Shown here: in pieces, positions 28,812 through 52,135 of the stretch
Position numbering within the stretch: the stretch's first letter is position 1
How the letters are laid out: each line of letters starts with the position of its first letter
From: an uncultured delta proteobacterium
GTDB taxonomy: Bacteria; Desulfobacterota; Binatia; JACPRU01
Length of the DNA: 64,000 nt
Direction of reading: 5' to 3'
NCBI GenBank assembly: GCA_963745025.1
Contig: CAVUWD010000015.1
Location: forward strand, 36,441 to 100,440
Notes under the pieces: model-generated
What the model saw: only the letters and a program-made list of their open reading frames with translations
Told to the model about the DNA's origin: nothing
Databases searched by the model: none
Program-made: the position numbers and the translations under genes

Positions 28812-28906
28812 GGAGATGGAAGAGGCCCGGCGGCCTCAGCGGTCTTCAAAACCGCATCAGGGCCGATAAGGTCCTGGGTGGGTTCGACTCCCATCCATCT
28901 CCGCCA
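28812..28906 (+). tRNA. selC: tRNA-Sec (anticodon UCA)
   Basis: 8-bp acceptor stem GGAGATGG/CCATCTCC plus GCCA; 6-bp D stem GAGGCC/GGCCTC with a 4-nt loop; anticodon loop CTTCAAA; long variable arm; T arm GTGGG-TTCGACT-CCCAT; 95 nt. Confidence 0.95.
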
Positions 28907-28996
28907 TTTTCCGCGGGGTTACGTCGCGATTGGCCCTCGCGAGGGCCAAACGTTCCCTCTCTTGCCCAAAGAGCGACGCACGGAGCCCTCCCGAAC

Positions 28997-30219
28997 CCGT
29001 AGTGGCTAGCACAGCCATCCGGCTCGGAACTCCATGGAATTCGTCGTTCGACGGTCCGGTGACCCTTGTTCGGGATGAGCCGAGAACGCCGCGATGCCCA
29101 TGCGCCTGATGTCCTGCCTTGCCACGGCCATCGCCTCGCTTCGCGACCGGATACGCCGATGGACGCGCCCCTCGACCCGACCCATCGTTGGGTACCTCAT
29201 CGACCGGTTCCGCTCGCCCGCGGACCTGGCCCGCGAGAATGCGCTCCTGCGCAAGCAACTCGAGGTCGCCTACCGACAGATCACGCGCCCACGGTTCACC
29301 CGGGCGGATCGGGGGATGCTCGTGCTCCTCGCACAGCTCTGCCCGACCTGGCGGAGCGCCACACTCCTCGTCCAGCCCGAGACCATCCTGCGCTGGCACC
29401 GACAAGCCTTCGAGCTCTTCTGGCGTCGCAAGTCCAAGCGGGCAGGAGCGCCGCCGCGGATCGGCGTGGACACGATCGCCCTGATCGAGACAATGGCCAG
29501 CAAGAACCGGCTCTGGGGCGCCGAGCGGATCCGCGGGGAGCTGCTGAAGCTCAACGTTCGCGTCGCCAAGCGCACGATCCAGCGGTACATGCGGCGAGTC
29601 CGGCAGCCACGACCGCCCGGCCAGCGCTGGGCGACGTTTCTGCGCAACCACGCGCACGCAACCTGGGCCTGCGATTTCCTGCAGACCTACGACCTGCTCT
29701 TCCGACCGATCTTTGCGTTCTTGCTGATCGAACTCGGGTCGCGGCGGGTTGCGCACGTAGGGGTGACGCGCTCACCCGTCGAGCGCATGGGTGACCCAGC
29801 AGCTCCGCGAGGCGACGGCGTGGGGTGAAGGCCCGCGTTTCCTGATCCGCGACAACGACGACAAGTTCGGCACGCGATTCGACGACGTGGCGGAGGGGAC
29901 CGGGATCAAGATTCTCCGTACGCCCGTCCGAGCACCGAACGCGAACGCGTTCTGCGAGCGCTTCCTGCGAAGCGTGCGCGCCGAGTGCCTCGACCACGTG
30001 CTCATCCGCGGCGAGGATCACCTCGGGTTTATCCTCCGGCGCTACGGCGCCTACTTCAACGACGCACGGCCGCACCAGGGCATCAGCCAGAAGATTCCGA
30101 GCGGGCCACCCGAACCACCGGCCGGCGGCGGGAAGATCAAGGAAACCCCCATTCTCGGCGGCCTCCACTACGACTACCGGCTGGCTGCCTAGCTCGGATG
30201 GATCAGGTATCCAGTACGG
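28997..30219 (+). mobile_element. IS element with an integrase-core (rve, IS3/IS481-like) transposase, frameshifted near 29790
   Basis: Imperfect inverted repeats CCGTAGTGGCTAG..CCATCCG and CGGATGG..TATCCAGTACGG. ORF motifs VQPETILRWHR, WGAERIRGELLKL, WACDF, LIRDND.KF, PNANAFCER, RPHQG, LGGLHYDY. Confidence 0.85.
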
Positions 30220-30675
30220 CCTCGAGCTCCGCCATCGTCTCGACCCGAATTCCCGCCTCGTTACTCATCGCCGTGGATACCGCCATTCAAACTGGTGGCC
30301 ACCCGCGAGGCAAGTAGGAAGGGACGGTCTTGAGGTCAGCAGCGCCCGGCGATCACCCGCCCGTGGATGGCACACGGTTAGCGTTCCGGCGCCCTTCACT
30401 ACTGCCCGCTTGAGTCCAGCGCCTTGGCGGCCACCATTCCCATCGCGTGATCGACGACCGAGACTCGGCTCCGACACCGACCGTACCCTCGCCGCCGCCG
30501 TCGGCGCCGTCGACTCCAAACGACACGCCGACGAAGTCCTCCGCGACATCCCGCCACGCCACTAGCTCGATCGTCGTCCGTCCCTGCATGCCGCGCCGAC
30601 TCCGCCGGCCCGGCACCCCGCCACCGCGAGCCCACCCGCCGCCCTCTCGCCTCCGCCTTGTGGAAGGCCGTTCGG

Positions 30676-32070
30676 CTATTCCACATACCCGAGTGCTCGC
30701 AGCGCGCGGACCTTCTCGGGCGGGACCGCCGCGCTCGTGTCGCCGGTCGCCGCGAGGGACGCGCGCCACTGCTCGAGTGCGCCGCGCAGCTCCGCCTCGA
30801 CCGCCGGGAGCGCGCGCGCGAGGTCGTGCGCCTCGCCCGGGTCGTCCCTGAGGTCGTAGAGCTGCGTGCGCGCGAACGGCGTCGACAGGATGAGCTTGTA
30901 GCGCCCGTTCTGCACGCTGAACTGCTCGAAGGAGCGCCACCGCATCTGCTTCGAGAACGGCAGGAGGCGGCGCTCGGAAAAGACCAGTCGGGCACCGGCC
31001 GGCTCTTGTCCGCCGATCTCCGGGACCAGGCTGCGTCCGTGGACCGCGAATCCCGGCGCTCCCACCAGCTCGACGATGGTCGGCGCGAGGTCGATCAGCG
31101 ACGCCGGACCCGGCAGCACGTGCCCCGCCGGCAGCACGCCGGGCCGGCGGAGGATCAACGGGACCTCGAGCACCTCCTGGTAGAGGAGCTGGCCGTGGTC
31201 GAACGCGTAGCGGTGCGTGCGGTCGCGCTCGGCGAGCGTCTCGCCGTGGTCGGCGGTCACCACGACCAGCGGTGGATTGCCGGGCGGCGCCAGCTCGTCG
31301 GCGAGGGCGACGAGCTGGCCGGCTAGGTCGTCGGCGTACGCGATCTCGTCGTCGTAGAGGGCGGTCATGACCCGGATCTCGGTTGGGGGATAGGGATCGC
31401 GGCTGGCCCCGTTGCCGCGATAGACCGGCGCGGGATCGCCGGGGGTGCCGAAGCGGAAGAGGAACGGCGTCGGGGCCCCGTACGGGGTGTGCGGGTCGAA
31501 CAGATGCACCCACACGAACATCGGCTCGGAGCGGTGGGCGCGCATCCACGCCATCGCCGACGTGACCGTCTTGCCGCCGATGCGCTGCGCGCCCTCCGGT
31601 CCCTCCTCGTGCTCGAACCCCTGGAGGCGGAGCTCGCTCGGGACCAGGTGGGCGCGCGAGACGAAGGCGGCGGTGTGGTAGCCGAGCCCGCGTGCCCAGG
31701 ACGCGAGCGTCGGGATCGACGGGTCGGCGAGCGTGTGCCCGTTCATCCGGATGCCGTGCGTGCGGGGCTGGAGCCCGGTGAGGATCGACGCGTGCGCCGG
31801 ATCCGTCATCGGCATCGGCGTGATGACCTGCTTGACGCGCACGCCTTCGGCGGCGACGCGCGAGAGCGCCGGGGAGGTCGGGCGGGCGTAGCCGTAGGTT
31901 GAGAGGTGGTCGGTGCGGGTCGTGTCGAGCGTCACCAGCAGGATGACGGTCGGTCGCGGCGGGGCGGCGACGGCGGCGCCCCTCCCCACGACGGTGGCCA
32001 GCACGAGGACGAGCAGACGGCGAGGGCACGACACGCGGGCGCCACTCTGCCCGACGGTCCCGCCGCCCAC
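30676..32070 (-). CDS. Sulfatase-like hydrolase/transferase (alkaline phosphatase superfamily), secreted
   Basis: LLVTLDTTRTDHL..YGY, T-D-P-A-H at the nucleophile position, WVHLFDPH.PY, TADHGE, C-terminal LRALGY. Confidence 0.85.
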   Translation of the reverse strand: MGGGTVGQSGARVSCPRRLLVLVLATVVGRGAAVAAPPRPTVILLVTLDTTRTDHLSTYGYARPTSPALSRVAAEGVRVKQVITPMPMTDPAHASILTGLQPRTHGIRMNGHTLADPSIPTLASWARGLGYHTAAFVSRAHLVPSELRLQGFEHEEGPEGAQRIGGKTVTSAMAWMRAHRSEPMFVWVHLFDPHTPYGAPTPFLFRFGTPGDPAPVYRGNGASRDPYPPTEIRVMTALYDDEIAYADDLAGQLVALADELAPPGNPPLVVVTADHGETLAERDRTHRYAFDHGQLLYQEVLEVPLILRRPGVLPAGHVLPGPASLIDLAPTIVELVGAPGFAVHGRSLVPEIGGQEPAGARLVFSERRLLPFSKQMRWRSFEQFSVQNGRYKLILSTPFARTQLYDLRDDPGEAHDLARALPAVEAELRGALEQWRASLAATGDTSAAVPPEKVRALRALGYVE

Positions 32071-32740: not shown

Positions 32741-33004
32741 ACGGGCGGGCGTCTCTAAAAAACCCGGCGTCCGATATCGTCGCGTTACGTCAACCAGGCC
32801 GCTTGTCCTGGCTATCCCCCGGCGGGTGGGTCGATTCGAGGCGCGCGCACAAACTCTTCGACATGAGGCGCGCCAAGTTCGGCATGTCGGCGCGGTGCTT
32901 GCCGAAGAAGAACGCCGGCGGCATCGAATCGAGCCCGAGAAATCGCAACCTTCGCCATCGCGCCGCCTCGAGGCTTGTACTATATAGTCGGCGCCGATTC
33001 GACA

Positions 33005-37074: not shown

Positions 37075-37086
37075 ACGGAGTACCGC

Positions 37087-38099: not shown

Positions 38100-38149
38100 G
38101 TGGCTCCCCGGAACCGGAGGCGCCGGCCTCATCGGCAGCGGGGCGATAC

Positions 38150-38435
38150 CCGCGAGCGTCACCCGTGGCTCGACCCTACCGACACGCGTCCACTTCGCAG
38201 GGCCGGCCCGTTTCCTATCCGATCACGCTGCAGCCGAGGGTGCGCTCCAACGAGCCGCTGGGTGGCGGGCGAGACGATAGGTGACCACTTCCACGTTACC
38301 ATCCCGAGAGACGCCCCCGCTGGACTCTACACCGCCGAGGTCGGTTTGTGGGATACTAGCCGTCCCGCACGGCTGCGCTGCGGCTGGTTCGGCCCTTCCC
38401 ATGCCGACGCGTTCACTCTGCGAGTCGCCGAGTGA
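38150..38435 (+). pseudogene. C-terminal Ig-like domain remnant of a GT-C-type protein
   Basis: PTSRWVAGETIGDHFHVTIPRDAPAGLYTAEVGLWD matches the C-terminus of 38432-41011 (STRFWAADEIV...VP..AADGPYAAEVGVW). Confidence 0.6.
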
Positions 38436-41011
38436 GCTTGGGACTGCGCGCAGCTTGGCGCGACGAGCGTCCATACGTACTGGCGCTCGTCTCGAGCATC
38501 GTCGTCGGGATGGCGATCCGCATCACGCTCGCGTTCGCAGCCCAGGGCAAACACTGGAGCGACAGCGCGACGATCGGGCTAATGGCGATTCACGAGATGC
38601 GGGGCAACTTCTACACGTTCTACTGGGGCCAGGCGTACATGGGATCGCTCGAGTCGCTCGCCACCGTCCCGTTCTTCGTGCTCTTCGGCGTCAGCGACGT
38701 GACGCTGTCGATGGGGCTCCTCCCCTGGTACGTCCTCTTCGCGATCGCGCTCTATCTGGTCGTGCGTCGCTGCGGCGGTCCTCTCGCCGGGGCGATCTCG
38801 GGCTGGCTGCTCGCCTTCGCGCCTCCCTACATCCAGTACCAGCAGTTCATGCCTCGCGGCGATTATCCGGAGACACTCGCTTTCGGCACGGTGCTGCTTT
38901 GGCTGACGCTGCGAGTGACGCACGGCGGTCTGCCCCAGCGCTCGGAGCGTCGCCACCTCTTGGCCATCGGATTGGTCGCCGGGCTCGCGTTTTGGACCAA
39001 CTGGCTCGTGTTCCCTTACTTCGCGGTAGTCGGAGCCTACCTGCTTCTCCACGATTGGCGGCTGCCGCTGCGGCCGGTCATCTTGCCGGTGGTCGCCTGC
39101 TTCTTCCTCGGCAGCTTGCCCTTCTGGGTATACAACATCCGCAACGGCTTCCCCACGTTCTCCTTCGTGGAGAGTCTGCAGGGGACCGAGGGCCAACACG
39201 CGGCGCTAGAATACGCCGTGCGCGGTGCCATCCCCCTCTTGTTCGGCTTCCGCGACCTGGACGAGAAGTTCGCGTTCGGCTGGCCGGGCCGCATGCTCAC
39301 GTGGCTCATGGCGCTCGGGCTGGGCGTGCTGCTGCTCGGCTTGTGGCGGTCCTGGCTGGCGCTCCTCCGCGGGCGCTTGCGCGAGACCCAGCCGGTGATC
39401 TCGCTCCTCCTGTTGATCGTTGCGATGGTGTGGATCTACACGGTCGGTCTCCCTGGCCGCTTCCACGTCGCCCGCTACCTCCTGCCCATCACCACCGCGA
39501 CGTTCGCGCTCACGGCCTTGGCCATCGGCTGGTTGGCGGCGCGGTCCCGCATCCTCGGCGGGGCGGCGCTGGCTCTGCTCATCGGCGTCTACGCGGTGCA
39601 AATCGCGGAGTTTCGCCGGGGCCTCGTCTCCTCGCCGCGCCCAGGAGTCGAGGGACCCGTCGACGAGCTGGCCGAGCATCTCCTGCGCTCCGGCATCCGC
39701 TACGGGTACGCCGACTACGGCGATTCGACTATCACCACCTACCTGACCCGCGACCGGGTCGTTCTCACGGACTTCTCGGGCGAGCGCTACCCGCTCGACG
39801 AGGTCGACTTCCACGACCCGGCCGTGATCGTGCGCGAGAGCGCTGGGACCGCCGACGGGACGCTCGCCTCGCTCCACGCGAGCTTCTCGGCGAGCCACAT
39901 CCCCGGCTACCGGATCTACTGGCCGATCCGTTACGACGGTATTTCGCGCGCACCCTTGGCGAGGCGCGGATGGAAGGTGACGGCGAGCGAGCATGCGGCC
40001 GACGCGCCGTCGATGCTCGACGGCGACCGCTGGACGTACTGGTCGGTGCCCGCCGACGGCAGCTTCCCGACGGTGACGCTCGATCTCGGCGGCTCGCAGA
40101 CCGTGACCGGCATCTTCTTCGACCTCGGCGAACGCAACCGTGACACCTTCGGGAAGCTCCGGATCGAGTCCTCGCTGGGCGGAGGCAACTGGTCGCTCGT
40201 CGAGGATGCGGAATGGGGGTTCCCCGTGCAGTTCGATTCCCGCGGCCAGGTGACCACGGTGCAGAGCGGCGTCCAGTACGTGCTGTTTCCCCCGCTCGTC
40301 GCCCGCGCGTTGCGCCTCACGCGGCTCGAGAGCAACGACGGCTACAACTGGTCGATCGGCGAGCTCGCCGTGCTTGGCCCGGGCTGGGGCGACGTCGCGC
40401 TGCGCCTCCCCGAATTCGCCGACCCCACTCTTCCGGCTCTCGCCGAGCGGCGGCTGCGCTCGCAAACCGAGCGCGAACCTGAAAACGATAGGCCCCTCGT
40501 TGAGCTCCGCCACCTGTATCGATCCCTCGGGGAAACCGCCAAGCTGGCCGACGTCGAGCGCATCGAGGCCGAGCGCTTCCGCCCCCGGGTTTCCCTCGGT
40601 TGGCGCTTCGGAAGCGACCTGAAGCTAGTCGGATACGACTGGCGAGTGCTCGGACCGCGCAGACTGGAGGTGACCTACTATTGGCAGGGGATGCGACGCA
40701 TGGACGGGGAGTACGCGGCATACGTGCACTTCCGCGGTGCCGGCCAGCAGTTCCAGGACGACTACTTGCTCGGATCACCGCTCAGCACGCGGTTCTGGGC
40801 CGCAGACGAGATCGTCAAGCAGCGTCGTGTGATCTCCGTCCCGCACAAAGCCGCCGACGGACCCTACGCTGCCGAGGTCGGCGTCTGGGTGCCTCAGAGC
40901 CGGCGGCACGTTCGGCTCGGATCCCTCGGGCTGCGGGGGCCGCGCACCCGGGCGCTGTTCCGCCTCGAGGTTCGAGGCCCTGAGGTGACGATCGGGAGGC
41001 AAGAGCCGTGA
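38432..41011 (+). CDS. GT-C (ArnT/PMT-like) glycosyltransferase with discoidin (F5/8C)-like and Ig-like C-terminal domains
   Basis: SD.A.IGLMA, YWGQAYMGSLE, about 11 transmembrane segments, AFWTN, WKVTAS...LDGDRWTYWS...LDLG...WSIGEL. Confidence 0.8.
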   Translation: MSLGLRAAWRDERPYVLALVSSIVVGMAIRITLAFAAQGKHWSDSATIGLMAIHEMRGNFYTFYWGQAYMGSLESLATVPFFVLFGVSDVTLSMGLLPWYVLFAIALYLVVRRCGGPLAGAISGWLLAFAPPYIQYQQFMPRGDYPETLAFGTVLLWLTLRVTHGGLPQRSERRHLLAIGLVAGLAFWTNWLVFPYFAVVGAYLLLHDWRLPLRPVILPVVACFFLGSLPFWVYNIRNGFPTFSFVESLQGTEGQHAALEYAVRGAIPLLFGFRDLDEKFAFGWPGRMLTWLMALGLGVLLLGLWRSWLALLRGRLRETQPVISLLLLIVAMVWIYTVGLPGRFHVARYLLPITTATFALTALAIGWLAARSRILGGAALALLIGVYAVQIAEFRRGLVSSPRPGVEGPVDELAEHLLRSGIRYGYADYGDSTITTYLTRDRVVLTDFSGERYPLDEVDFHDPAVIVRESAGTADGTLASLHASFSASHIPGYRIYWPIRYDGISRAPLARRGWKVTASEHAADAPSMLDGDRWTYWSVPADGSFPTVTLDLGGSQTVTGIFFDLGERNRDTFGKLRIESSLGGGNWSLVEDAEWGFPVQFDSRGQVTTVQSGVQYVLFPPLVARALRLTRLESNDGYNWSIGELAVLGPGWGDVALRLPEFADPTLPALAERRLRSQTEREPENDRPLVELRHLYRSLGETAKLADVERIEAERFRPRVSLGWRFGSDLKLVGYDWRVLGPRRLEVTYYWQGMRRMDGEYAAYVHFRGAGQQFQDDYLLGSPLSTRFWAADEIVKQRRVISVPHKAADGPYAAEVGVWVPQSRRHVRLGSLGLRGPRTRALFRLEVRGPEVTIGRQEP

Positions 41012-41057
41012 GCCCGGTCGAGAAGGCTCGTCCATTCATCCCCGTTTACGAGCCGTC

Positions 41058-41354
41058 AAGGACGCCAAGCTCTTTCCCGGCGGAGCGAGAGAGTGGCACT
41101 GGGCTGAGACCGGTACTGCGCACGTGCCCGGAATCCAGCCCTCCGACGTCACCGAGTTGCTGGAGCACGGCGCCACGGTGGTCGTGCTTACCAAGGGTGT
41201 ATACGAGCGGCTTCGGGTCTGCCCCGAGACGCTCAAGCTGCTTAGCGATCGAGGCATAGCCGTTCACGTCCTACAGACCGAGGAAGCCGTCCGAGTCTAC
41301 AATCGGCTGGTCGAGACGGATGGGGTTGGCGGACTCTTTCACTCGACCTGCTGA
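41058..41354 (+). pseudogene. Mth938/AAMDC-like protein, N-terminally truncated
   Basis: KDAKLFPGGAREWHWAETGT.H.PGIQP.DV.ELL...QTEEAV..YN.L...GGLFHSTC. Confidence 0.8.
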
Positions 41355-41522
41355 CCTGAAGAGTAGCCCTCATGCTCGACTCAGTTGTCTACCGGCGATT
41401 GAGGGTTTCACCCTCAACGTCTGTCCGGTAATAAACGGTCGCTCCTCTTTCGCTTCGGTGTCGTTCCAGATTGGAGTGCGCCCCGCGATCACGGCGCCAA
41501 CCTGCGGAAGCAATCGGGAATT

Positions 41523-43088
41523 TCAACCCCGGGCATAGAACTCGAGATCGGGCGAGATGAAGTATCCCGCGAACATCGGATCGAGCCGCCGGTAGAGCTC
41601 GCGATTCAGGAATTCGCCCTCGAACCGGCGCACGAGGTGAAAGCCCGTCTCGCCGCGGCGCAGGCGCTGGTAGGCGGGCTCGAACGCCGGGTGATGGTGG
41701 CGCTGGTGGCGCCAGTAGAGAAGCGAGGTGATCTCGACGAGGTCGAAGTCGTTGCGCTCGTGAAGGCGATCGACCCATGCCTCGCTCACGCCGGTGACGA
41801 CGATCCGCCGGTCGGTCGGAATCGCCATGTACGGACTGAAGCCGCAGGCGAGCAGGCGCTCGCCCGGCTTCATCGTCGTGTCGAGCCACCGCGCCGCTTC
41901 GATCCGCGTGTCGTTCCGCAGGCGCGACGTCGTCGAGAGCGTGAAGAGGCTCGTGTAGCCAAGCGTCACCGCGACCGCCGCGACCGCCGCCGCACGGCGC
42001 CGGCGCGAGGGGTCCTCGAGCCATTCGCCCTGCCAAACGCCCGCAAGCATGGCGCCGACCACCACGACGGGCATCTGATAGCGGAGTGGCGTGAACGTCC
42101 AGCGGCCGAGGATCGCGAAGAAGAGAGCCGCGAACCCGACCACGATCAGCCGTTCGCGTCGTGGGTGACGGAGCGTCCAGAGCGTGCCGGCCGCCGCGCT
42201 CAGGTAGAGCGCAAAGCCAAGGCTGAAGGGGAACCCAGCGAACAGCTCGTAGACGTACTTGTGGTACTGCCATCCCGGAGCCGGCAGGCTGAAGCCGTAG
42301 TGCAGGCTGTGGACGTGCTCGTACTCGGACGCCATCGCCGCGCGGAACTGCGCGAAGTGGAGGAAGCTGAACGGCGTCGCGGCGAAGCACGCCAGCAAAG
42401 CGACCACGCCGAGCGCGAAGAGGCCCGCGATCGTCGAGCGCTCGCCTCGGCCGGAGAGCGCGGCCGCGGCGAGCGGCGCGACCGCGACCAGCGCGGCGGT
42501 ATACTTGCTCGCGACGCCGAGTCCGATGGCGAGCCCCGTCCAGGCGTAGTCCGCCCATCGTCCGTGCGAGAAGAGGCGCAGCGACAGCGCGAGCGCCGCC
42601 ACGATCCAGAACGTCATCACCACGTCGGTCACCGCGAAGTGGCTCTCCCAGACGTGCAGCGGGAGCAGCGCCACCCAGAGGCCGGCGAGCGCCGCGCCGA
42701 GCGTCGAGGCGCCCATCTCCGCCACGACCCAGAACGCCGCCGGGGCGGTCGCCGCACCGAACGCCGCGACGATCGAGCGCGCGACGATATACGACTGCCA
42801 GGTCTCGGAGACGAGCCCGACTCGCGTGGCGAGCCCGTTCGCGATCGCGATCAGGTAGATCAGGAACGAGGGGTAGTTCAGGAACTTCGGATCCGGCTGG
42901 TCGATGGAGATGGCGAGCGCGTGGCTCATCACGTGTTCCATCTCGTCGGGATGGAGGTCGATGCGAGTCGGCGCCCCCCACTGGAGGCCCCAGAATCGAA
43001 ACGCCGCGGCCAGCAGGAAGAGCGCCAACGCCACCCAGCGTTGGTTTCCCGCGGTGCCGGCGCTACGCATCATCGAGCTAGCGTCCAT
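41523..43088 (-). CDS. GT-C (ArnT/GT39/GT83-like) glycosyltransferase
   Basis: RFWGLQWG.P..HPDE, NYPS, SHFAVTDV, GLGVASKY, TPF; multiple transmembrane segments. Confidence 0.85.
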   Translation of the reverse strand: MDASSMMRSAGTAGNQRWVALALFLLAAAFRFWGLQWGAPTRIDLHPDEMEHVMSHALAISIDQPDPKFLNYPSFLIYLIAIANGLATRVGLVSETWQSYIVARSIVAAFGAATAPAAFWVVAEMGASTLGAALAGLWVALLPLHVWESHFAVTDVVMTFWIVAALALSLRLFSHGRWADYAWTGLAIGLGVASKYTAALVAVAPLAAAALSGRGERSTIAGLFALGVVALLACFAATPFSFLHFAQFRAAMASEYEHVHSLHYGFSLPAPGWQYHKYVYELFAGFPFSLGFALYLSAAAGTLWTLRHPRRERLIVVGFAALFFAILGRWTFTPLRYQMPVVVVGAMLAGVWQGEWLEDPSRRRRAAAVAAVAVTLGYTSLFTLSTTSRLRNDTRIEAARWLDTTMKPGERLLACGFSPYMAIPTDRRIVVTGVSEAWVDRLHERNDFDLVEITSLLYWRHQRHHHPAFEPAYQRLRRGETGFHLVRRFEGEFLNRELYRRLDPMFAGYFISPDLEFYARG

Positions 43089-43413: not shown

Positions 43414-43457
43414 GGTAGGAGCTCGAGGCCGCCTCCTGTTTCATCCAGCCCGCGGGA

Positions 43458-44429
43458 TCAACCCGCCGGTCGCCGCCCGACCACCTGCGTGCTCGGCTTC
43501 GTCCGCCGCGCGACGACCGTGAACATCGGCATCGGACGACCGCTGTGCTGTTGGCTATGAAGGGCCACGCGACTGTCCTCGAAACCTAGAATGCCGAGAA
43601 GCTCCCGGACGACGTGCGGGCTCAGCTGCCACCAAGCGTCCTTCGGCTCGCGGCGCCGATAGTCGGGCAGAAGCGTCAGGATCGGCAGCGCTGCCATGCG
43701 CTCGCCATACTGCCGCAGGTGCTCCTCAAACTGGCGTAGCCAGACTTCGTTTTTCCAGAGCGGATCGCCGCAGATTCGCTGCGCGAGCCGCAACACGTGC
43801 CTCCGCCAGCCGGCGATGGCGGGCAGCCTTGGCGCCGGCGGGGGCAGCGTCACCGGCGGCATCCAGAAGGGCTCCGTGACGATCACCGTCTCGCGCACCA
43901 TACGGAGCGCACTCGCCAACGCTAGAAACGGATCGCGGAGGTGAAGGAGGATGCAGCCGAACATGGCGACGTCCACCGTACCGATGGCTCCGGGAACGTC
44001 GTAAACGTCGCCGTAGACCACGCGGGCGGACGACTGGAACGCGCGATGGCAGAGCCACCAGCCGTTGTTCACGAGGTGGATAAGCGAGCTGTACTCCGCC
44101 GCCATGCGGCGGAGGTCATCATCGGGAAACACTACGACGTTCTGCAGGTGCGCGTGCTCGGGCGAGAGATCGTAGGCGACAACGTCCGCCCCTTGCCTTT
44201 CCATGTGGAAGCACACGAAGCCGCTCGCCGTACCGAGCTCGAGTACTCGCTTGCCGCCGAGGGGCACGTGGCCAAGATAGTCTCCGATCGCCGCGCGGAG
44301 GTCCCACGGACCTTCGACGAGCCCGTACCCCGGAACCTCGATCGTGTGGTAGAAGAAGCAGTCCTCCAGCCGCGTCACGACGCGCGGGGCTGCGTATGGC
44401 GCTTGGCCGGCTAAGAGGCTTTCGCTCAT
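43458..44429 (-). CDS. Class I SAM-dependent methyltransferase
   Basis: CFFYHTIEVPG, GKRVLELGTASGF, ILLHLRDPF.AL. Confidence 0.85.
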   Translation of the reverse strand: MSESLLAGQAPYAAPRVVTRLEDCFFYHTIEVPGYGLVEGPWDLRAAIGDYLGHVPLGGKRVLELGTASGFVCFHMERQGADVVAYDLSPEHAHLQNVVVFPDDDLRRMAAEYSSLIHLVNNGWWLCHRAFQSSARVVYGDVYDVPGAIGTVDVAMFGCILLHLRDPFLALASALRMVRETVIVTEPFWMPPVTLPPPAPRLPAIAGWRRHVLRLAQRICGDPLWKNEVWLRQFEEHLRQYGERMAALPILTLLPDYRRREPKDAWWQLSPHVVRELLGILGFEDSRVALHSQQHSGRPMPMFTVVARRTKPSTQVVGRRPAG

Positions 44430-44804
44430 CGCGTATTTGCGCGGCCGTCAAAGCGCACCGGTCGCTCGAGGTCAAGTTGACCTCGGGACTCATTTCCGTC
44501 TTCTTCTCGGCGAACGACTTTGTCGGGCGTTGGTCGCTCTGCTCGATGCGCATCGGCTTCGACCTCACCCTGCTCGCCGGCGCCTCCGTTCATCTGATTT
44601 CGATGCTCGCCTGGCCGTACTTGCAATCGTCAGCCTGGCCGATTGCCTCTGGCAGTCCAAAGCCCTTTGGGTTGAGCGATGCGTTCACCCTCCAGAGCGT
44701 GCGGCGACCGCTACCGAGTTTGAACCACGTGGTTCAAACTCGGGCTCTACGTAGGCCGAAGTGGGACGATCCGAGCAAGAAAACCCTTAGAAATTCGCAC
44801 CTAC

Positions 44805-44833
44805 TCGAGGGTTCGAATCCCTTCTGCTCCAAC
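44805..44833 (+). other. tRNA-Ala-like 3' fragment (att-core-like) within the island 1 right arm
   Basis: TCGAGGGTTCGAATCCCTTCTGCTCCA is a T arm plus acceptor 3' strand with U70 (G3:U70 Ala identity). Confidence 0.6.
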
Positions 44834-45017
44834 CTCGCCGATGCCTTAGAGCTTTGGAGTGCCCTCAGGCGAGAAAGGGTTCGGTTTTTTCGCTGCGTCG
44901 GCAGACGATGGATCCGGTGCTTGATCTGTAGTTTGGCCCTCGAGGGCTAAGCTACCCCTGAACAGCCACATCCAGCATCATCGGCGGCGAAATTCTCTTG
45001 ATTTTCCGCGGTCGGCT

Positions 45018-45046
45018 GTGGGTTCGACTCCCATCCATCTCCGCCA
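45018..45046 (+). repeat. tRNA-Sec 3' duplication (junction of island 1 and island 2, attP-like)
   Basis: GTGGGTTCGACTCCCATCCATCTCCGCCA, identical to 28878-28906. Confidence 0.95.
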
Positions 45047-45149
45047 TTTTCCGTCGGGGTTACGTGGCGTTTGGCCCTCGCGAGGGCCAAACGAGGGCCC
45101 AAGGTTCCCTTTTTTGCCTGAAGAGCGGTGCACCGAGCCCTCTCGAACC

Positions 45150-45290
45150 ACGCTCCGGATCGCCGAGCCGCTCGGCCTCCTCGAAGCTCTTGAGCCGGGC
45201 GAGCTTCGCCCGGCTCATTACGGTGGCTACCGCCCCGAAGCTCACCCCGAGGCTGCGCCATGTGAGTTCGCTCGGCGGGCAAGTCGCAAC
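45150..45290 (-). pseudogene. IS21 IstA N-terminal HTH fragment
   Basis: RSLGVSFGAVATVMSRAKLARLKSFEEAERLGD resembles IstA N-termini. Confidence 0.5.
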
Positions 45291-45496
45291 GCCGCATGTG
45301 GCCAAGCGGGCTCCCACCTCGATGCGCCGCGACGACGATCGCCTCGGGAGGGCTCGTAGGCAAAATGCGGCCGCACAATGGCTAGGCGACTTCTGGGACT
45401 TTGTTCCGGCTCAGAAACTGAGCCAAGGCTAGAGAAAATGTCTGGAGTTTGGGAGGTTGGGAGGACGTCGCACCTGAGGGTGAGTGCTCAGGGCGG

Positions 45497-45545
45497 ATCA
45501 CCTATGTTCCCGGTTCAATGTGTTACCCATGTTCCCGGTCGCAAC
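45497..45545 (+). mobile_element. IS481-like terminal repeat remnant
   Basis: Tandem (T)CACCTATGTTCCCGGT ... TGTTACCCATGTTCCCGGT, as seen at IS481-family ends. Confidence 0.55.
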
Positions 45546-45687
45546 CGCCCCGTTCCACGCGATGCCTCACCCATTGCTCGGCGCCGGGCCGTGACGCTCC
45601 CGGAACGAGCGGTGCTCTGCGTCTGGCCCGTCTCGTTCAGCCGCTACGCCGAGGTCGACTGGGTCGAGATCTCGCACTCGCTCGTCG

Positions 45688-47793
45688 GTGATTGACGCCG
45701 CGATGCTCGCAAAAGACGATCTCGCCGGTCTGCCGGGTCCCGCGCTGCTCCTCGCCGGAGGCGTCGCGGTGCTCATAGGAGGCTTCGGCGCGACCGCGTC
45801 GATCACCGGGATCGCCTGGGGCGCCCTTGCCGCGGCCGCGGGCGCCGCGCTCGTTGCCGCTAGCGTCCGGCGCGGGCGCGCGCCCTCGGATGCCGTCTGG
45901 ATCGCCGCGGGAGCGATTGCGCTCGCGTTCGTCGCGTTCTCGGAATCGAGCGCGCGGACGTTCGCGCACCTGAACGCGCGCTCGGTGCGCGGGGCCTGGC
46001 CCTACCTCGCGGGAGGCGGCCTTCTCGTGGCGCACTGGTTCGGGCGCGATCCCGATCGGCGTGGCTGGGTCCTGTTCGCCGCCGTTCAACTCTGGCTCGT
46101 GCTCACCTTCCACGACGCCACCGGCGGCGCGCTCGTCACCTCCGACGACCTGCCGTCGTTCCTCTACCGCCTGCATCTCGAGCGCGACGCGTTCCCGCAC
46201 CTCGTCTTCTGGAACCCGGAGTGGAACGGCGGCTACGCCAGCTACGAGCTCGTCGCGACCGGCGCGATCAGCTTCTTCCTGCTTGCATCGCCGTTCCTCG
46301 CGCTCGGTGAACTCGTCGATACGTTCTCGGTCGCGCTCCCGCACGTGTACTTCGTCGTGCTCCCGTGGAGCTACTACCTTGGGCTTCGAGCGTTCGGTGT
46401 CGCCGCCGGGGCGGCCGCTCTTGGCGGCATCGCATCGCTCGCGCCGACCACGCTGCTATTCCTCTACGCGCTCCACTTCGGCCTGCCGCCGTTCGTGATC
46501 TCCTGCTACTTCGCGGTCGTTGCGACCGGCCTCTTCGCGCACGCGTTTCTCGTCGGCCGGACCGATCTCGCTGGTCTCGTCGCGCTCGTCGCCGCAACGA
46601 GCTTCGTGCTCCTCTGGCCGCTCGGCGCGCTGATCCTGCTGCCGGTGATCGGCAGCGCGGCGCTCGCCGCGCGGCGGTTCAAGTCGGCAGACTGGAGGCG
46701 CGCAAGCGCGGTCGTGGCCGCCCTTCTCGCGCTCCACCTGCCCTGGGTCTACTGGCTCGCGATCTACGGCGACTCGCGGCAGCATCTGGCGCGCCAGGCG
46801 AGCCCGATTCTCGGCGGCGTAGATTGGCCGGGGACCACGCTCGCGATCGGCCGGACGCTCGAGCAGTTGAACCCGGTCGTCGCCGCGTTCGCCCCGGTAG
46901 GCGCCGTCCTAATGCTCCGCTGGCCGCCGGGACCGAAGCGAGCCGCCGGGGCCCTCCTCGTGGCACTTGCGGCCTGGAATTTCGTGATCGGCATCTTCGC
47001 GAACCAGATCCGTACGGACGTCGGCCTGGAGCGCTTCGCGATTCCGGCGAGCCTATTTCTCGCCGCGCTCGCGACGGTCGCGTTCGACCGCCTCCTCGAG
47101 TACGGCGCATCCTGGATCCGGACGGCGATTCTCGGCACTGTCGTCGCCGTGCTCGGGGCGAGCGTCGCCGGCGCCGCCTCCTTCTACCGGAACGAGGGTA
47201 TCTATGGGTACGAAACCTCGTCGCCGGCGCTCGAGCGCATGGTCGACGCGATCCGTACGCATTGCGACCCCGAGCGCCGGGTGCTCGTTCCCGGCATCTC
47301 GGTGCACTGGTTCGGCGGCGGCCACATGGCGCCCCTGCCGCTGCTCACCGGCCGAAGCTTCGTCGGCAACGACTTCTACCACCGCCGCGACTTTCGCGAC
47401 GCCGTGCCGAGGAAGTTCCAGAGCGGCGAAGCCTTCCGCCACTTCCTCGACCTCTGGAACGTCGGCTGCGTCCTGAACCACCTGCCGACCTGGGCCGAGA
47501 CGCTCGCGGCGAGGCCCGATCTCGCTGCGGTCGCGGACGAGGGCGGTATCACGCTCTACGCCGTACCCGGGGCGTCGAACCGGTTCCTGCGGGGCTCGGG
47601 CCGCGTCGAGGAACGGCCCGGAGCGCTCGTCGTCGAGACCGGGGACTCGGAGGTCGTGATCAAATATCGCTGGTCGCCGGCACTGCGCACCGATCCGCCA
47701 GTGCCGATCGCAGGGGAGCGGATCTACGGCGACGTTTCGTTCATCCGACTTCGCCCCGGCGGGCACCAGCGCGTGGAGATCACACTCCGATGA
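45688..47793 (+). CDS. Polytopic membrane protein, GT-C/YfhO-like
   Basis: SDDLPSF...WNPEWNGGY loop, many transmembrane segments, periplasmic C-terminal domain (ERRVLVPG, FLDLWNVG.V). Confidence 0.7.
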   Translation: MIDAAMLAKDDLAGLPGPALLLAGGVAVLIGGFGATASITGIAWGALAAAAGAALVAASVRRGRAPSDAVWIAAGAIALAFVAFSESSARTFAHLNARSVRGAWPYLAGGGLLVAHWFGRDPDRRGWVLFAAVQLWLVLTFHDATGGALVTSDDLPSFLYRLHLERDAFPHLVFWNPEWNGGYASYELVATGAISFFLLASPFLALGELVDTFSVALPHVYFVVLPWSYYLGLRAFGVAAGAAALGGIASLAPTTLLFLYALHFGLPPFVISCYFAVVATGLFAHAFLVGRTDLAGLVALVAATSFVLLWPLGALILLPVIGSAALAARRFKSADWRRASAVVAALLALHLPWVYWLAIYGDSRQHLARQASPILGGVDWPGTTLAIGRTLEQLNPVVAAFAPVGAVLMLRWPPGPKRAAGALLVALAAWNFVIGIFANQIRTDVGLERFAIPASLFLAALATVAFDRLLEYGASWIRTAILGTVVAVLGASVAGAASFYRNEGIYGYETSSPALERMVDAIRTHCDPERRVLVPGISVHWFGGGHMAPLPLLTGRSFVGNDFYHRRDFRDAVPRKFQSGEAFRHFLDLWNVGCVLNHLPTWAETLAARPDLAAVADEGGITLYAVPGASNRFLRGSGRVEERPGALVVETGDSEVVIKYRWSPALRTDPPVPIAGERIYGDVSFIRLRPGGHQRVEITLR

Positions 47794-49724
47794 GCGCGCG
47801 ATGGCTGACCGGGGAGTCTGCGAGAGCTCCTTGGCTCGCCCTAGCCGCGGTGGTCGTGGTGTTCGCCGCGGCGCACCTCGACCTCGGCGCGATGGACAGC
47901 TTTCGAACGACCTGGGAGGCGGTCGCCTCCGGCGCCGAGCGCATCCCCGCAAGCGGCCAGGTGGCGATCTGGGAGGTGCCCCGCGACGTCGTGGTCGCCG
48001 AGCCGGCCACGGTTCTCCACCTCGCGGAGCGCGTGGGCTTCGCCGGGTCGGCGTCCTTCTGGCTGCTCGCCGCCGCGCTCGGGGTCGTCGGGGCCGCCGG
48101 CGCGTTCGCCATCGGGCTCGACCTCGGGCTGGCGCCGCCCACCGCCGGTCTCGCGGCCGCCGCCGCGGGATCGCTCTTCCTCGCTTCCGGACAGGGCCTC
48201 TGGGGAACGCTCGCCGCGGCGCCGCTCATCTGGGTCGTGCGTGGCGCCGTCGGCGGCCGCGGTCTCGCCCTCCCGATCGCGGTCGTGGCGCTCGGCGTGC
48301 TCTCGCGCCCGGGAACGCTCCTCGCCGTGCCGGTGCTCGTCGCCGGGATCCTCGCACGCGGTACGACGTCGACGGTGGCGCTCTCGCTCGCGCTCACGCT
48401 CGGTTTTGCGATTCCGCCCAACGAAGTCGACTGGGCGCGCTTCCTCCGCCTCGACGCCGGTCACTACTTCGCCTACGGCGCGCCGTACGGGCTTCCGGAC
48501 CGCGGCTACCGCGCGACGCTCGCCGCCTCGATTGGGGCCGTGCGGGGCGACGGGATCGCGCTCGCCGCCAGCGTCGCTGCGTGGGGCGCGGCTGCGGTCG
48601 GAGCCGTGCGCACCGGGCGACGCGGATGCGCGTTCTTCGTCGCGGCTGCCGCCTTCGCCGCACTCGTGACCCATCCGCCGGGTCGCCTCCACGAGTCGGC
48701 GTCGTCGCCCGCCGCGTTCCTCGCAACGATCGCTCCGTCGCTCCAGGTCTACGACCTCGCGCGGATCGGCGGCTCGATCGCCGCGCTGCTCCTGCCGCCG
48801 CTCGCGGCGCGCGGGATCCGGAGGACGCTCGCCGCCGCCCTCGCGATGCTCGCGCTCGTCGCCCTCGGCTGGCGCGGTGGGAACGAGGCGGGAACCGGCG
48901 TCGAGCCGATCGACCGGCAGCTCGCCGAGATGATCGCGGCGAACCCGGGCCGCGTGCTCGTGCTGCCGCTCGGGGTCGCGTCGGACGGCGCGTGGCAGAG
49001 GGCAATCCCCCCCGGGACCGGGCTCGCGAACGGATCGCAGGAGCTGCTCGCACGGAACGCGCCGATCCTAGCGCGCGAGTTCGCGCTCGCCGATGTCGCG
49101 AGCCTGAAGGAACTCGCCGGCAGGCTCCACGTCGACCGCGTGCTCTTGCCGCGCGGCTGGACGTGGGAGCGGGGGCAGGTGGTCGGCGCGGGCGGGGGAC
49201 GGCTGCTCGTTGGGCTGCCGCAGCGCCAGCCTGCGAAGGCTCCGAAGCCGCTCGAGTGCCTCCCGACCACTGGTTGGAAGGCGACCTCGAGCGTCGGCAA
49301 TCCGAGCGTGTCGATCCCGGAGCGCGCGATCGACCGCGACGTCGACACCCGCTGGGGAACCGGAGCCCCGCAAGAGCCCGGCTTCTTCTACGAGATCGAC
49401 CTCGGCGGCGAATACCGGCTCGACCGCCTGCGCATCGACTTCACAGGCTGGCGGCGCGACTTCCCGCGCGGCTTCCGCGTGCTCGTCAGCCAGGACGACG
49501 GCTCGGTCGCCGTCGTCGCCGAGCGCGATCCTTACTTGGGCGAGCTCGCCTGGGGGCTCGACGGCTCGTTCCCATACGACGACGGCGCTCAGGGCGGCCG
49601 GATCGAGATGGGTCTCGGGCGCACCCGGGGGCACCGCCTCAGGATCGAGCTCACGCGCGGCGCGCGCTTTTACGACTGGTCGATCGGCGAGCTCTGCCTC
49701 GCCGGCGAACGGATCGAGCCGTGA
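47790..49724 (+). CDS. Polytopic membrane protein (GT-C-like) with a C-terminal discoidin domain
   Basis: ATGA overlap, many transmembrane segments, GRVLVLP, WKATSS...AIDRDVDTRWGTG.PQ.PG..EIDLG...DFPRG...DWSIGEL. Confidence 0.75.
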   Translation: MSARWLTGESARAPWLALAAVVVVFAAAHLDLGAMDSFRTTWEAVASGAERIPASGQVAIWEVPRDVVVAEPATVLHLAERVGFAGSASFWLLAAALGVVGAAGAFAIGLDLGLAPPTAGLAAAAAGSLFLASGQGLWGTLAAAPLIWVVRGAVGGRGLALPIAVVALGVLSRPGTLLAVPVLVAGILARGTTSTVALSLALTLGFAIPPNEVDWARFLRLDAGHYFAYGAPYGLPDRGYRATLAASIGAVRGDGIALAASVAAWGAAAVGAVRTGRRGCAFFVAAAAFAALVTHPPGRLHESASSPAAFLATIAPSLQVYDLARIGGSIAALLLPPLAARGIRRTLAAALAMLALVALGWRGGNEAGTGVEPIDRQLAEMIAANPGRVLVLPLGVASDGAWQRAIPPGTGLANGSQELLARNAPILAREFALADVASLKELAGRLHVDRVLLPRGWTWERGQVVGAGGGRLLVGLPQRQPAKAPKPLECLPTTGWKATSSVGNPSVSIPERAIDRDVDTRWGTGAPQEPGFFYEIDLGGEYRLDRLRIDFTGWRRDFPRGFRVLVSQDDGSVAVVAERDPYLGELAWGLDGSFPYDDGAQGGRIEMGLGRTRGHRLRIELTRGARFYDWSIGELCLAGERIEP

Positions 49725-51670
49725 GCGCGCGCGCCCGCACGCTCGCCGTCGTCGCGGCGGCTGTCGCGGTCGGCCTCGCATACCGGCTACTCGTGCTCCG
49801 TGGCCTGTTGGGCAGGCTCCGCGGCGACCACGCGGTGGTCGCGCTCATGGCGAAGCACATCACCGAGGGCCATCACTACATCTTCTACTGGGGCCAAAAC
49901 TACATGGGCTCGCTCGAGCCCTACACCATCGCGGCGCTCGTGCGGCTCTTCGGGCTTTCGGACGCGGTTGTGATGACCGGCCCGCTCCTCTGGGGCCTCG
50001 TCCACCTGCTCACGTTCTATCCCCTCGGCCGCCTACTCTATGACAGGGCGGTCGGCGCGGTGACCCTGGTTGCAGCCGCACTCGCACCGCCGCTACTAGC
50101 GCTGTGGCACGTGGAGCCGCGGGGCGGCTACGCGGAAGGTCTCGCCCTCGGGCAGCTCGCGCTCGTGATCGGGATCTGGCTCGCGCGCGACCGCCCGCGC
50201 GACTGGGGCACCGGGGCGGCGCTCGCGCTCGGCGTCGTGGCTGGTCTTGGTTTCTGGACGAACCTCCTGGTCGTCGACTATCTGGTCCCGGCGTGCGTTT
50301 TGCTCTTGTCGCGCGATCCGAGCGCGCCGCTCCGGCGCCACACCTGGGTAGCGCTCGCCGGCTTCGGCCTGGGCAGCCTGCCGCTCTGGGTGCACACCGT
50401 CGCACAGGGCTTCTCGGCGTTTGCGATCATCGGCGGTCGGGACGGCCATGTGTCGGTCGCGAGGAATGCGCTTCACCTCTGCTCGCAAGAGGGGCCGGTT
50501 GTGCTCGGCGTCGCGCGGCTCGACGGCTTCGGGGGTCTCGTCGGCGGATCTGCAGGAATCGCCGCCGCTGCAATCATGGTCGCGGGGATCGGCTGGAGCA
50601 CATGGCGAGCGCGCCACGGCCTCCTCGACCTCGTCCGCCTGAGCCCCACGGCGCCGGGCGGGGAAATCTGCGTCCTATTGCTAGCGACCGTCCTCTGCCT
50701 CTACCTGCCGACGCACTTCGCGACGTGGAACGCCCCCCGTTATCTCCTGCCGGCGTACGCGGGCATTCTGCCGCTCCTCGCCGCGGCCGGCGTCGACCTG
50801 TGGCGCCGCTCGCGGCTCGCGGCGACGCTCGCAACGCTGTTCGTCGCGGGCGTGGTCAGCGCGGGCGCTCGGGCATATCTCGTAGCTCTCGCGGCACCGG
50901 ATGTCTATGCAGACCGTCTCGGCCGGGTTCTGCAGCTCCTCGCTACCGAGCGAGTGCACCAGGGCTTCGCCGACTACGACGAGGCGTTCCTCCTTACCTA
51001 CCGGTCGAACGAGCGCTCGTTGATGCTCGAACGAGAGATGCACCGCTACCCCCACGAGGAGATCGCCGACTGGAGGCCCGACGCGGTGCTCGCCCGACGC
51101 GAGTTCGCGGGGGCCCTGCAGGACGCGTTCACAGCGCTCGATTGCGCGTTCGAGCACCGCGACGTCGGCACCTACACGCTCTTCTACCGGATCCACCCGA
51201 GGCACCAGACCGCGCCGATCGCCGACCGATCGGCGTGGACCGCGACTGCGAGTGATGCGCCGGAGAACGCGCACTTCGCGATCGACGGCGACCTCCAAAC
51301 CCGCTGGGGTTCGGCTCGGCCTCAATCGCCCGGCATCTGGTTCGAAGTCGACCTCGCCGGCGAGACCGAGGTCGGCGGCGTCGTGCTCCGCTCGGGACGC
51401 TTCGGTCACGATACGCCGCGTGCGATCCGGGTCGAGACCCGCGCCGAGGATGGCGTCTGGAGCCCAGCGGTCGCCCTCGACACGCCCGCTGTCGGCCTCG
51501 TGCTCTCGAACGGAGCGATCGATCTCCGGAGCGAGGCGACGATCGAGATCGGGTTCTCGCCCCGTGCGGCGCGCGCGATCCGGATCTCGCTCGCGGCCGC
51601 CGACCGAAAGTGGGACTGGTCGATCGCCGAGCTCGCGGTGAAGGAAGCGCAGCCGGCAGCGGCACGATGA
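49721..51670 (+). CDS. GT-C (ArnT/PMT-like) glycosyltransferase with a C-terminal discoidin domain
   Basis: GDHAVVALMA, YWGQNYMGSLE, GFWTN, PRYLLP, AIDGDLQTRWGS..PQ.PG.WFEVDL...DWSIAEL. Paralog of 38432-41011. Confidence 0.8.
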   Translation: MSARARTLAVVAAAVAVGLAYRLLVLRGLLGRLRGDHAVVALMAKHITEGHHYIFYWGQNYMGSLEPYTIAALVRLFGLSDAVVMTGPLLWGLVHLLTFYPLGRLLYDRAVGAVTLVAAALAPPLLALWHVEPRGGYAEGLALGQLALVIGIWLARDRPRDWGTGAALALGVVAGLGFWTNLLVVDYLVPACVLLLSRDPSAPLRRHTWVALAGFGLGSLPLWVHTVAQGFSAFAIIGGRDGHVSVARNALHLCSQEGPVVLGVARLDGFGGLVGGSAGIAAAAIMVAGIGWSTWRARHGLLDLVRLSPTAPGGEICVLLLATVLCLYLPTHFATWNAPRYLLPAYAGILPLLAAAGVDLWRRSRLAATLATLFVAGVVSAGARAYLVALAAPDVYADRLGRVLQLLATERVHQGFADYDEAFLLTYRSNERSLMLEREMHRYPHEEIADWRPDAVLARREFAGALQDAFTALDCAFEHRDVGTYTLFYRIHPRHQTAPIADRSAWTATASDAPENAHFAIDGDLQTRWGSARPQSPGIWFEVDLAGETEVGGVVLRSGRFGHDTPRAIRVETRAEDGVWSPAVALDTPAVGLVLSNGAIDLRSEATIEIGFSPRAARAIRISLAAADRKWDWSIAELAVKEAQPAAAR

Positions 51671-51883
51671 GCAAGCGTGCGTGGAAGAGCCCGACGCACG
51701 AAGCCCAGAAGACGCACAGTTCGATCCAGAGAAGGAAAAACCCCCGCGGGCCAAGGCCAGGAAGCGGGCCAGTCTCGTGCGGAATCTTGGCGATCAGGAT
51801 TCGCTGCGTCGCAGCTCTCGCCGGCTTACCGTTGCCTGGCCCATGTGGGCCAAACTCGGGCTCCGAAGCGGCCGATACGGCAC

Positions 51884-51912
51884 GTTGGAGCAGAAGGAAT
51901 TCGAGCCCTCGA
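51884..51912 (-). other. Inverted tRNA-Ala-like 3' fragment within the island 2 right arm
   Basis: Reverse complement TCGAGGGCTCGAATTCCTTCTGCTCCAAC, 27/29 identical to 44805-44833. Confidence 0.65.
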
Positions 51913-52108
51913 TCGAAGAAGCGCCCCGATTCCTTACGGCTTTGGGGTCCCCTCGGGAGACGAAGCTTCCGGTCTTTTCGCCGCGTCGGCGCACGAGGGA
52001 TTCGGTGCGTAATCTTGAGTTTGGCCCTCGAGGGCTAACCTATCCACTGAAGAGCCACATCCAGCATCATCTGCGGCGAAATTCTCTAGATTTTCCGCAG
52101 TCGGCTCC

Positions 52109-52135
52109 GGGTTCGACTCCCATCCATCTCCGCCA
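52109..52135 (+). repeat. tRNA-Sec 3' duplication (attR of the tandem array)
   Basis: GGGTTCGACTCCCATCCATCTCCGCCA. The downstream sequence diverges from the island left arms. Confidence 0.92.

Follow-up and report, generated by a model that had tools for sequence, protein, structure and literature searches.

Two tandem integrase-less islands behind selC in an uncultured Binatia bacterium: a probable case of decayed tRNA-targeting islands

In an uncultured delta proteobacterium of the Binatia (Desulfobacterota; JACPRU01), the tRNA-Sec gene selC is followed by two islands in tandem, each bounded by recombination arms and by the selC 3' end or a copy of it, and neither of them encodes an integrase. 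We regard this array as two related tRNA-targeting islands that piled up in tandem and then decayed, with later loss of their integrases, a reading to which we give a probability of about 0.68. The DNA analysed, hereafter the window, is a stretch of 64,000 nucleotides at the end of one contig (C15; G000:C15:36441-100440) of a 20-contig, 5.65-Mb metagenome-assembled genome (G000; 92.65% complete, 7.6% contamination). Genes for tRNAs were located with ARAGORN and, as the DNA is 65-75% G+C, reading frames were judged by their third-position G+C (GC3).

Anatomy of the selC array

The array is defined by the following elements:

28812..28906, + strand: selC, an intact tRNA-Sec gene with anticodon TCA (ARAGORN); its 3' end is the recombination core on the attL side
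28907..28997, + strand: left arm 1 (P' arm), with the perfect palindrome TTGGCCCTCGCGAGGGCCAA at 28930-28949
44838..45017, + strand: right arm 1 (P arm), with the palindrome GTTTGGCCCTCGAGGGCTAA at 44931-44950
45018..45046, + strand: copy 1 of the selC 3' end, exact (29/29), core of the attP-like middle junction
45047..45149, + strand: left arm 2, with the perfect 26-nt palindrome CGTTTGGCCCTCGCGAGGGCCAAACG at 45068-45093 and, within it, TTGGCCCTCGCGAGGGCCAA at 45071-45090
51837..52108, + strand: right arm 2, with a distal palindrome TGGCCCATGTGGGCCA at 51837-51852, a proximal one, GTTTGGCCCTCGAGGGCTAA, at 52019-52038, and an inverted tRNA-Ala 3' fragment at 51884-51912
52109..52135, + strand: copy 2 of the selC 3' end, exact (27/27), attR core

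selC is the single tRNA gene that ARAGORN recognizes in the window, and it is conserved in the relatives G001 and G007. The direct repeat of the tRNA 3' end at the far boundary, by which tRNA-targeting islands are recognized, is present for both islands (29 nt and 27 nt) and delimits 16,111 bp of island 1 and 7,062 bp of island 2. The other hallmark of such islands, an own tyrosine integrase beside the att site, is absent from C15. With arms and cores at both ends, and with cargo and one insertion sequence (IS) pseudogene as the only open reading frames called between them (Pfam/NCBIfam), both islands have the make-up of a cis-mobilisable element (CIME), namely attL and attR without integration or transfer genes.

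Left arms 1 and 2, aligned over 103 columns, show 79% identity and share the same palindrome. A relaxed pattern of this left-arm palindrome has five matches where 0.17 are expected, a number reached in none of 100 shuffles, and a scan for the exact left-arm pattern (25 nt, two of them N) gave no match among the genome contigs and none among the metagenome contigs. The right arms are 84% identical over 181 positions (44838-45017 and 51926-52106), and weaker homology extends back to 44725 and 51841 (families D1, 79%, and D12, 70%), giving a total of ~290 bp; their shared motif GTTTGGCCCTCGAGGGCTAA is a near-palindrome. Since right arm, core and left arm adjoin at the middle junction, this junction is attP-like. 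The initial annotation had described an intact selC with exact 3'-end copies, islands of 16 kb and 7 kb, a common left arm after selC and after the first copy, a right arm of ~270 bp before both copies and a complete attP-like middle junction. This whole description agrees with our measurements, the right arm being closer to 290 bp and its quoted motifs falling at 44931-44950 and 52019-52038.

A search with the 26-mer of the selC 3' end recovered G001, G007 and 15 metagenome contigs, of which L037 only carries a homologous arm. G001 (same genus, 82% complete) and G007 (78% complete) are the only two other genomes of the family with this selC; both contain a single copy of it, and neither has arms or a repeated core; in particular, left arm 1 is not present 3' of their selC. 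The sequence after selC in G001 (TTTTCTGCGGGAAAT...) and in G007 resembles the window after position 52135 (TTTTTCGCGGAAATTCGAG..., from 52136), and so does the sequence after selC in the metagenome contigs L043, L045 and L047. The absence of arms from G001 and G007, together with this likeness, suggests that the arms are foreign and that the far end of the array is native. When G001, G007 and 10 of the 15 metagenome contigs were compared with the window by tblastx, no shared flanking genes, and hence no syntenic empty site, were found.

Integrase relatives and arm motifs

A six-frame search of the whole assembly with hidden Markov models yielded 24 matches to PF00589 and four to PF00239, none of them on C15, and queries specific for the integrase family described below found on C15 only tails reading through selC and no integrase body. 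All of these searches uphold the initial observation that neither island encodes an integrase. Outside the window, a third right arm-core-left arm junction lies on contig C18 (C18:98950-99200, minus strand), with the right-arm palindrome TTTCGACCTCGAGGTCCAAA and a core matching at 27 of 28 positions. Its left arm is 94% identical to left arm 2 of the window and runs directly into an integrase 3' remnant (C18:98413-98864), which matches residues ~276-424 of the protein P0009 and in which an acyltransferase gene takes the place of the N-terminal two thirds. On the metagenome contig L037 (2.6 kb), a diverged left arm that bears the palindrome TGGCCCTCACGAGGGCCA comes directly after selC. The arms of C18 and L037 both run into a short open frame reading towards selC (P0004 in L037), the two being 64% identical.

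The P0004 frame aligns to the end of a 459-aa integrase of G002 (PF00589, 2e-9; SAM-like and arm-binding domains), which adjoins secG and a probable tRNA-Leu gene, the latter read from the sequence, and also to a full-length copy in the genome studied here (C11:374621-376526). These alignments, and the longer relatives described next, show that frames of the P0004 type are the C-terminal box of a tyrosine integrase. An earlier, tentative assignment of P0004 as an excisionase or regulator, that is, a small helix-turn-helix protein by the left arm, was dropped because of this alignment to the integrase C-terminal box.

Among 168 candidates, 11 longer relatives of the remnant were retrieved at E<=1e-5, and PF00589 and/or PF12167 is found in 8 of the 11. 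Six of them (P0006-P0009, P0011 and P0012) end in ...GGDGWESNPPRT(L/S)SAL(M/I/K)RF, exactly the tail that results when complete selC is translated on the reverse strand, from the 3' end as far as the anticodon; the genes of these six integrases therefore directly adjoin a full selC and read into it. P0009, an integrase-family protein that looks full-length, has a tail that matches selC and left arm 1 of the window (64% over 42 aa). Hence integrase remnants, and in P0009 an apparently full-length integrase, stand beside homologous arms or selC elsewhere. Since homologous arms carry an integrase remnant and relatives of this remnant read through selC, the arms belong to an ordinary integrase-bearing island family. 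The initial annotation had reckoned that its own reading, integrase-less cassettes, would fail if homologous arms elsewhere always flanked ordinary integrase-encoding islands with unrelated cargo; remnants do follow the left arm on C18 and L037, and six of the 11 closest longer relatives are integrase-family proteins that read through selC, so this expectation is borne out in part. An integrase family that targets selC in these bacteria is thus identified.

Three types of att site with one architecture occur in the genome, at selC, tRNA-Ala(CGC) and tRNA-Leu(GAG):

selC type: half-site TTGGCCC, in the left and right arms of the window
tRNA-Ala(CGC) type: palindrome TTGAACCACGTGGTTCAA, half-site TTGAACC
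tRNA-Leu(GAG) type: palindrome TTGGACCCACAGGGTCCAA on contig C16; motifs TTGGACC or ACCGGAAC

Palindromes of the selC type may be written TTGGCCCTCG(CG)AGGGCCAA. From the start of the right-arm palindrome to the tRNA 3' end, where the core ends, the distance is ~115 nt in all three types, and the left arms of the selC and Ala types bear the same half-site as their own right arm, starting 22-42 nt past the tRNA 3' end. The C11 element, whose integrase is intact, has its own motif, ACCGGAAC, copies of which form a palindrome in the right arm and a direct repeat in the left one, and 4 of the 34 copies of this motif on the 673-kb contig C11 fall in the two arms of the element. Compared with those of the window, the C18 right-arm palindrome is changed at mirrored positions in both halves. 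A loose palindrome pattern found 19 sites in the genome, 10 of them counted in att arms, against 7 in a reversed-sequence control. Collectively, the placement of the palindromes, the mirrored changes, the enrichment of the motifs and the PF12167 domain suggest that the arm palindromes are, most likely, arm-type sites bound by the N-terminal arm-binding domain (PF12167) of the integrase. It is less likely that the left-arm palindrome would be a mere terminator of selC, as the right arm has the same half-site. Islands at tRNA-Arg and tRNA-Thr genes of the genome have direct-repeat arm motifs, and several of them retain integrases.

Several other loci of the genome touch the same system. The orphan selC-type junction of C18 lies within a large polysaccharide locus (C18:89000-120500; L021, L028) with two Acyl_transf_3 genes, a WbsX-like glycosyltransferase, an ABC-2 transporter, methyltransferases, GT4 and GT2, and it adjoins an IS1634 transposase and the toxin genes HigB and MazF. 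We considered whether C18 could be a plasmid or an integrative and conjugative element with a true attP and rejected this, as its genes look chromosomal (metabolic and polysaccharide loci). The C11 integrase is a 635-codon open frame in C11:374621-394180, flanked by a tRNA-Leu(GAG) 3' fragment; at the far end of the element, 19 kb off, there is an exact 20-nt copy of the tRNA-Leu(GAG) 3' end, and no complete tRNA gene lies nearby. A frameshifted integrase copy of the same family is found at C1:14093-15225, at the end of a 15-kb contig.

A second array without an intact integrase lies behind tRNA-Ala(CGC) on contig C14 (C14:231448-259711; L022, L023), with the Ala-type right-arm module (TTGAACCACGTGGTTCAA) at 234630, 247207 and 259633. 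Its first island (3.2 kb) consists of a single gene for a 795-aa AEP-TOTE primase with a ResIII helicase, and the other islands carry metabolic genes. On contig C7 (C7:133288-133560), an inverted tRNA-Ala attL-like module, made of the 3' end and a palindrome-bearing left arm, lies ~150 bp upstream of a 3' copy of tRNA-Thr(CGT), an arrangement that shows shuffling of att modules between tRNA types.

Cargo of the two islands

Cargo domains were assigned with Pfam/NCBIfam to the open reading frames called in the islands, and functions are read from domain families alone. Island 1 holds the following features:

29094..30192, + strand: IS481-family transposase pseudogene in two frames (29094-29828 and 29791-30192; Pfam HTH_32, rve_3)
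30676..32070, - strand: sulfatase/alkaline-phosphatase-superfamily enzyme (PF00884, 7e-35), with weak similarity to arylsulfatase and phosphoethanolamine transferase
within island 1: CBS-domain gene
32975-35113 and 35110-37074, + strand: two paralogues of the type I phosphodiesterase family (PF01663), overlapping at ATGA, 42% identical (blastp)
within island 1, listed between the phosphodiesterase and PMT_2 genes: gene without assigned family
38432..41011, + strand: GT-C-type (PMT_2) membrane glycosyltransferase with a C-terminal F5/8 type C (discoidin) domain (Pfam)
41052..41354, + strand: 5'-truncated DUF498 gene (PF04430)
41523..43088, - strand: GT-C glycosyltransferase of the PMT/PMT_2 family (Pfam)
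43458..44429, - strand: class I S-adenosylmethionine-dependent methyltransferase (Pfam Methyltransf_23/_11)
44720..44831, + strand: relic tRNA-Ala(CGC)-type right arm, with TTGAACCACGTGGTTCAA at 44720-44737 and an exact 27-nt tRNA-Ala 3' end at 44805-44831

The transposase pseudogene starts ~95 bp past the end of the left-arm homology, the site of the integrase 3' end in relatives. Its frame switch is visible in the GC3 plot, and its assignment to IS481 comes from fragments that score far under the cut-off of the NCBIfam model transpos_IS481. The truncated DUF498 gene marks a rearrangement breakpoint within island 1; its counterpart at C19:346629-346999, with 92% identity, belongs to an intact gene, and ~270 bp from that gene there is a copy of the tRNA-Val 3' end. 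The relic Ala-type right arm directly precedes right arm 1, and the same module recurs 3' of tRNA-Ala on C14. Right arm 2 contains a diverged version of this relic stretch, in which the tRNA-Ala fragment is inverted and the distal palindrome is of the selC type. With a transposase pseudogene at the spot expected of the integrase, a truncated gene and a relic tRNA-Ala att site, island 1 is a mosaic. A paralogue of its second PMT gene (window 41529-43018) lies at C16:210155-211647, outside any recognised island (77% identical, megablast).

The cargo of island 2 (45688..51670, + strand) is a three-gene operon in which stops overlap starts, as seen from the GC3 plot and the start codons:

45688-47793, + strand: gene A, polytopic membrane protein; tentatively YfhO/PTPS-related, as a mere lead from its nearest Atlas clusters
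47790-49724, + strand: gene B, membrane protein with a discoidin domain (Pfam)
49721-51670, + strand: gene C, PMT_2 with a discoidin domain (Pfam)

The PMT_2-discoidin protein of island 1 and gene C of island 2 share 31% identity over 625 aa, so that the related envelope-modification genes claimed for both islands in the initial annotation are indeed related at the family level. As predicted from these domains, the cargo of both islands probably modifies envelope glycans. The same annotation had placed IS remnants just inside both left arms; this is correct for island 1 (IS481, 29094-30192) and does not apply to island 2, where Pfam and further annotation found nothing transposase-like inside left arm 2.

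Further repeats were noticed in the window. A segment of 1,863 bp (53385-55247) that contains an aldo/keto reductase gene and part of its neighbour, 1.25 kb past attR, is 99.3% identical to C18:87235-89095, ~10 kb from the selC-type junction of that contig; it is inverted there, with unrelated DNA on both sides, and could be the product of either strain mixture or a shared island module. An ~85-bp repeat at 11450-11535 recurs with 87-95% identity on at least 10 other contigs, several times on C4 and C17, and is probably a small dispersed repeat or a miniature inverted-repeat transposable element. Near the contig end, dispersed repeats are found at 61599-62243 (96% identical to C13:77828-78472) and 62444-62789 (92% identical to C11:354675-355020).

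Decay, mobility and comparable systems

The course of events that we infer is as follows. Both islands were probably brought in by tyrosine integrases of a single family, which would join an attP, composed of P arm, selC 3'-end core and P' arm, to the 3' end of selC. The second element would have entered the reconstituted core of the first, which would leave the attP-like middle junction. In this family the integrase gene lies directly inside the left arm and reads towards the tRNA gene; it would then have been lost from both islands, and an IS481-family element now occupies its presumed spot in island 1. The outcome would be CIME-like blocks of cargo with intact att sites, which may remain substrates for an incoming cognate integrase. 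Two islands of one family, as judged by their arms, stacked at selC by site-specific recombination, had already been recognized in the initial annotation. The alternative that it mentioned, deletion of the integrases with an IS at the spot, fits better than its preferred explanation, with the reservation that the IS is present in island 1 only.

Several observations weigh against this account of decay. Neither island of the window has a deletion scar or an integrase fragment, and for this reason the loss of integrase in the window is deduced from the relatives. This loss looks systematic, as no intact integrase is present within the selC-, Ala- and Leu(GAG)-type arrays of the assembly. The remnants of both DNA-level homologues of the left arm, C18 and L037, are cut at nearly the same point, which could mean that an integrase-less derivative itself spread. 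The exact cores and the perfect left-arm palindromes suggest recent activity or selection on the sites. Finally, the tandem arrangement rests on the assembly, and the contigs of this organism in public sequencing runs are short and shallow.

Some of these points would be explained if the islands were functional non-autonomous elements (CIMEs or satellites), moved by a selC-specific integrase encoded elsewhere, either on an incoming element or in DNA missing from the 92.65%-complete assembly; the array would then be a stack of exchangeable glycan modules. Indeed, both islands retain both arms, with cores matching at 29/29 and 27/27 positions and perfect palindromes in the left arms, and the three islands linked to selC-type arms, two in the window and one on C18, all have glycan genes. 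The like-cut remnants of C18 and L037 are what a spreading truncated form should leave, and mobilisation of CIMEs by accretion is documented in other bacteria (PMC5704250). We nevertheless find this explanation unlikely. No intact selC-type integrase was found in the assembly, only the Leu-type copy of C11, the frameshifted copy of C1 and remnants, and since the half-sites differ by element type, cross-mobilisation by the Leu-type integrase is unlikely. Moreover, there is no evidence of excision, and island 1 is visibly decayed. A wider proposal seems doubtful to us, according to which the islands would be live modules, mobilizable in cis or in trans, of an undescribed tRNA-targeting family of uncultured soil and wetland bacteria, with lineage-specific pairs of integrase and motif and with relic Ala sites recording switches of target. 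If this were true, the selC stack would be an exchangeable store of envelope-glycan modules whenever a cognate integrase enters the cell.

It is still more improbable that the tandem is an artefact of assembly or a chimera of strains, in which islands of different strains were joined at the repeated core and arms. The sequence comes from a 20-contig metagenome bin with 7.6% contamination, and the 1.86-kb segment common to C15 and C18 (99.3% identity) demonstrates that repeats or mixed strains occur close to the locus. As to public reads, at most 0.29 of the sampled words are present in the best runs, and the Logan contigs on window 36001-56000 are pieces of 106-340 bp at a depth of 2-7, none of which is shown to bridge a junction, the sides of the listed joints being 20-31 nt long and noise-like. 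On the other hand, the arms are only 79-92% identical and the exact core is shorter than 30 nt, and repeats this brief and this dissimilar would not mislead an assembler of long contigs; three junctions with distinct flanks exist, and the tRNA-Ala array of C14 is built in the same way.

The explanation favoured by the initial annotation, non-autonomous cassettes stacked in trans as in an integron, is hardly credible: repeated recombination sites do part units of related function with no recombinase inside them, but the platform that this implies, a dedicated recombinase capturing promoterless cassettes serially at a fixed site, has no IntI, attI or other array integrase beside it (the upstream neighbour of selC codes for an AMP-binding enzyme), its units are 7-16 kb long with up to ~ten genes on both strands and not single-gene attC cassettes, its sites are tRNA 3' ends with arms of ~100 bp and ~290 bp, not attC-like and with the attL/attR anatomy of tyrosine-integrase islands, and the relatives of its arms carry their own integrase. 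Integrons also capture units serially at one site; they require IntI, attI and single-gene attC cassettes.

We therefore return to a decayed pile of islands, for which there are precedents. The selC islands of Enterobacteria usually keep a P4-like integrase beside selC and carry virulence cargo; the integrase family and the cargo described here are unrelated to theirs. What is common to both is the use of selC as a hotspot for integrase-borne islands (PMC7545054, PMC2704930). For streptococci, a three-step model has been put forward, with integration, decay to a CIME with attL and attR, and further integration into an att site (PMC5704250). Like the ICESt1-related CIMEs of Streptococcus, the islands of the window lack integration genes, have kept attL and attR and stand in tandem at the 3' end of the target gene (PMC5704250). 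Unlike them, they are found in an uncultured soil or wetland host, with selC as the target and another integrase family, and they are accompanied neither by a conjugation module nor by a functional partner element.

In Dehalococcoides, 15 ssrA islands without an integration module were called possible cis-mobilizable elements, and where it is present the integration module adjoins attL (PMC3146451). These islands resemble those of the window in their serial arrangement behind one small-RNA gene, in the direct repeats of its 3' end and in their repeated, related adaptive cargo (PMC3146451). They depend on serine recombinases (DsiB, CcrB-like) and a 20-bp repeat, whereas the array at selC has a tyrosine integrase family, long arms and palindromic motifs (PMC3146451). 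The tycheposons of Prochlorococcus, elements with tyrosine recombinases, also integrate serially at one tRNA gene, and fragmented integrases and partial tRNAs are scattered in their islands (bioRxiv 10.1101/2020.12.28.424599). The hallmark replication genes of tycheposons are absent from the islands of the window.

The current understanding of genomic islands is left unchanged by these data, which fit ordinary island decay in an unusual lineage. They illustrate, in a barely sampled group of bacteria, the familiar route of islands that gather behind a tRNA gene and are later deprived of their integrases. The cargo stays fixed and yet is bracketed by putatively usable att sites, and the arm motifs form a clean set. 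Furthermore, the repeated presence of glycan-modifying cargo suggests that selection keeps variation of the cell surface at the selC site.

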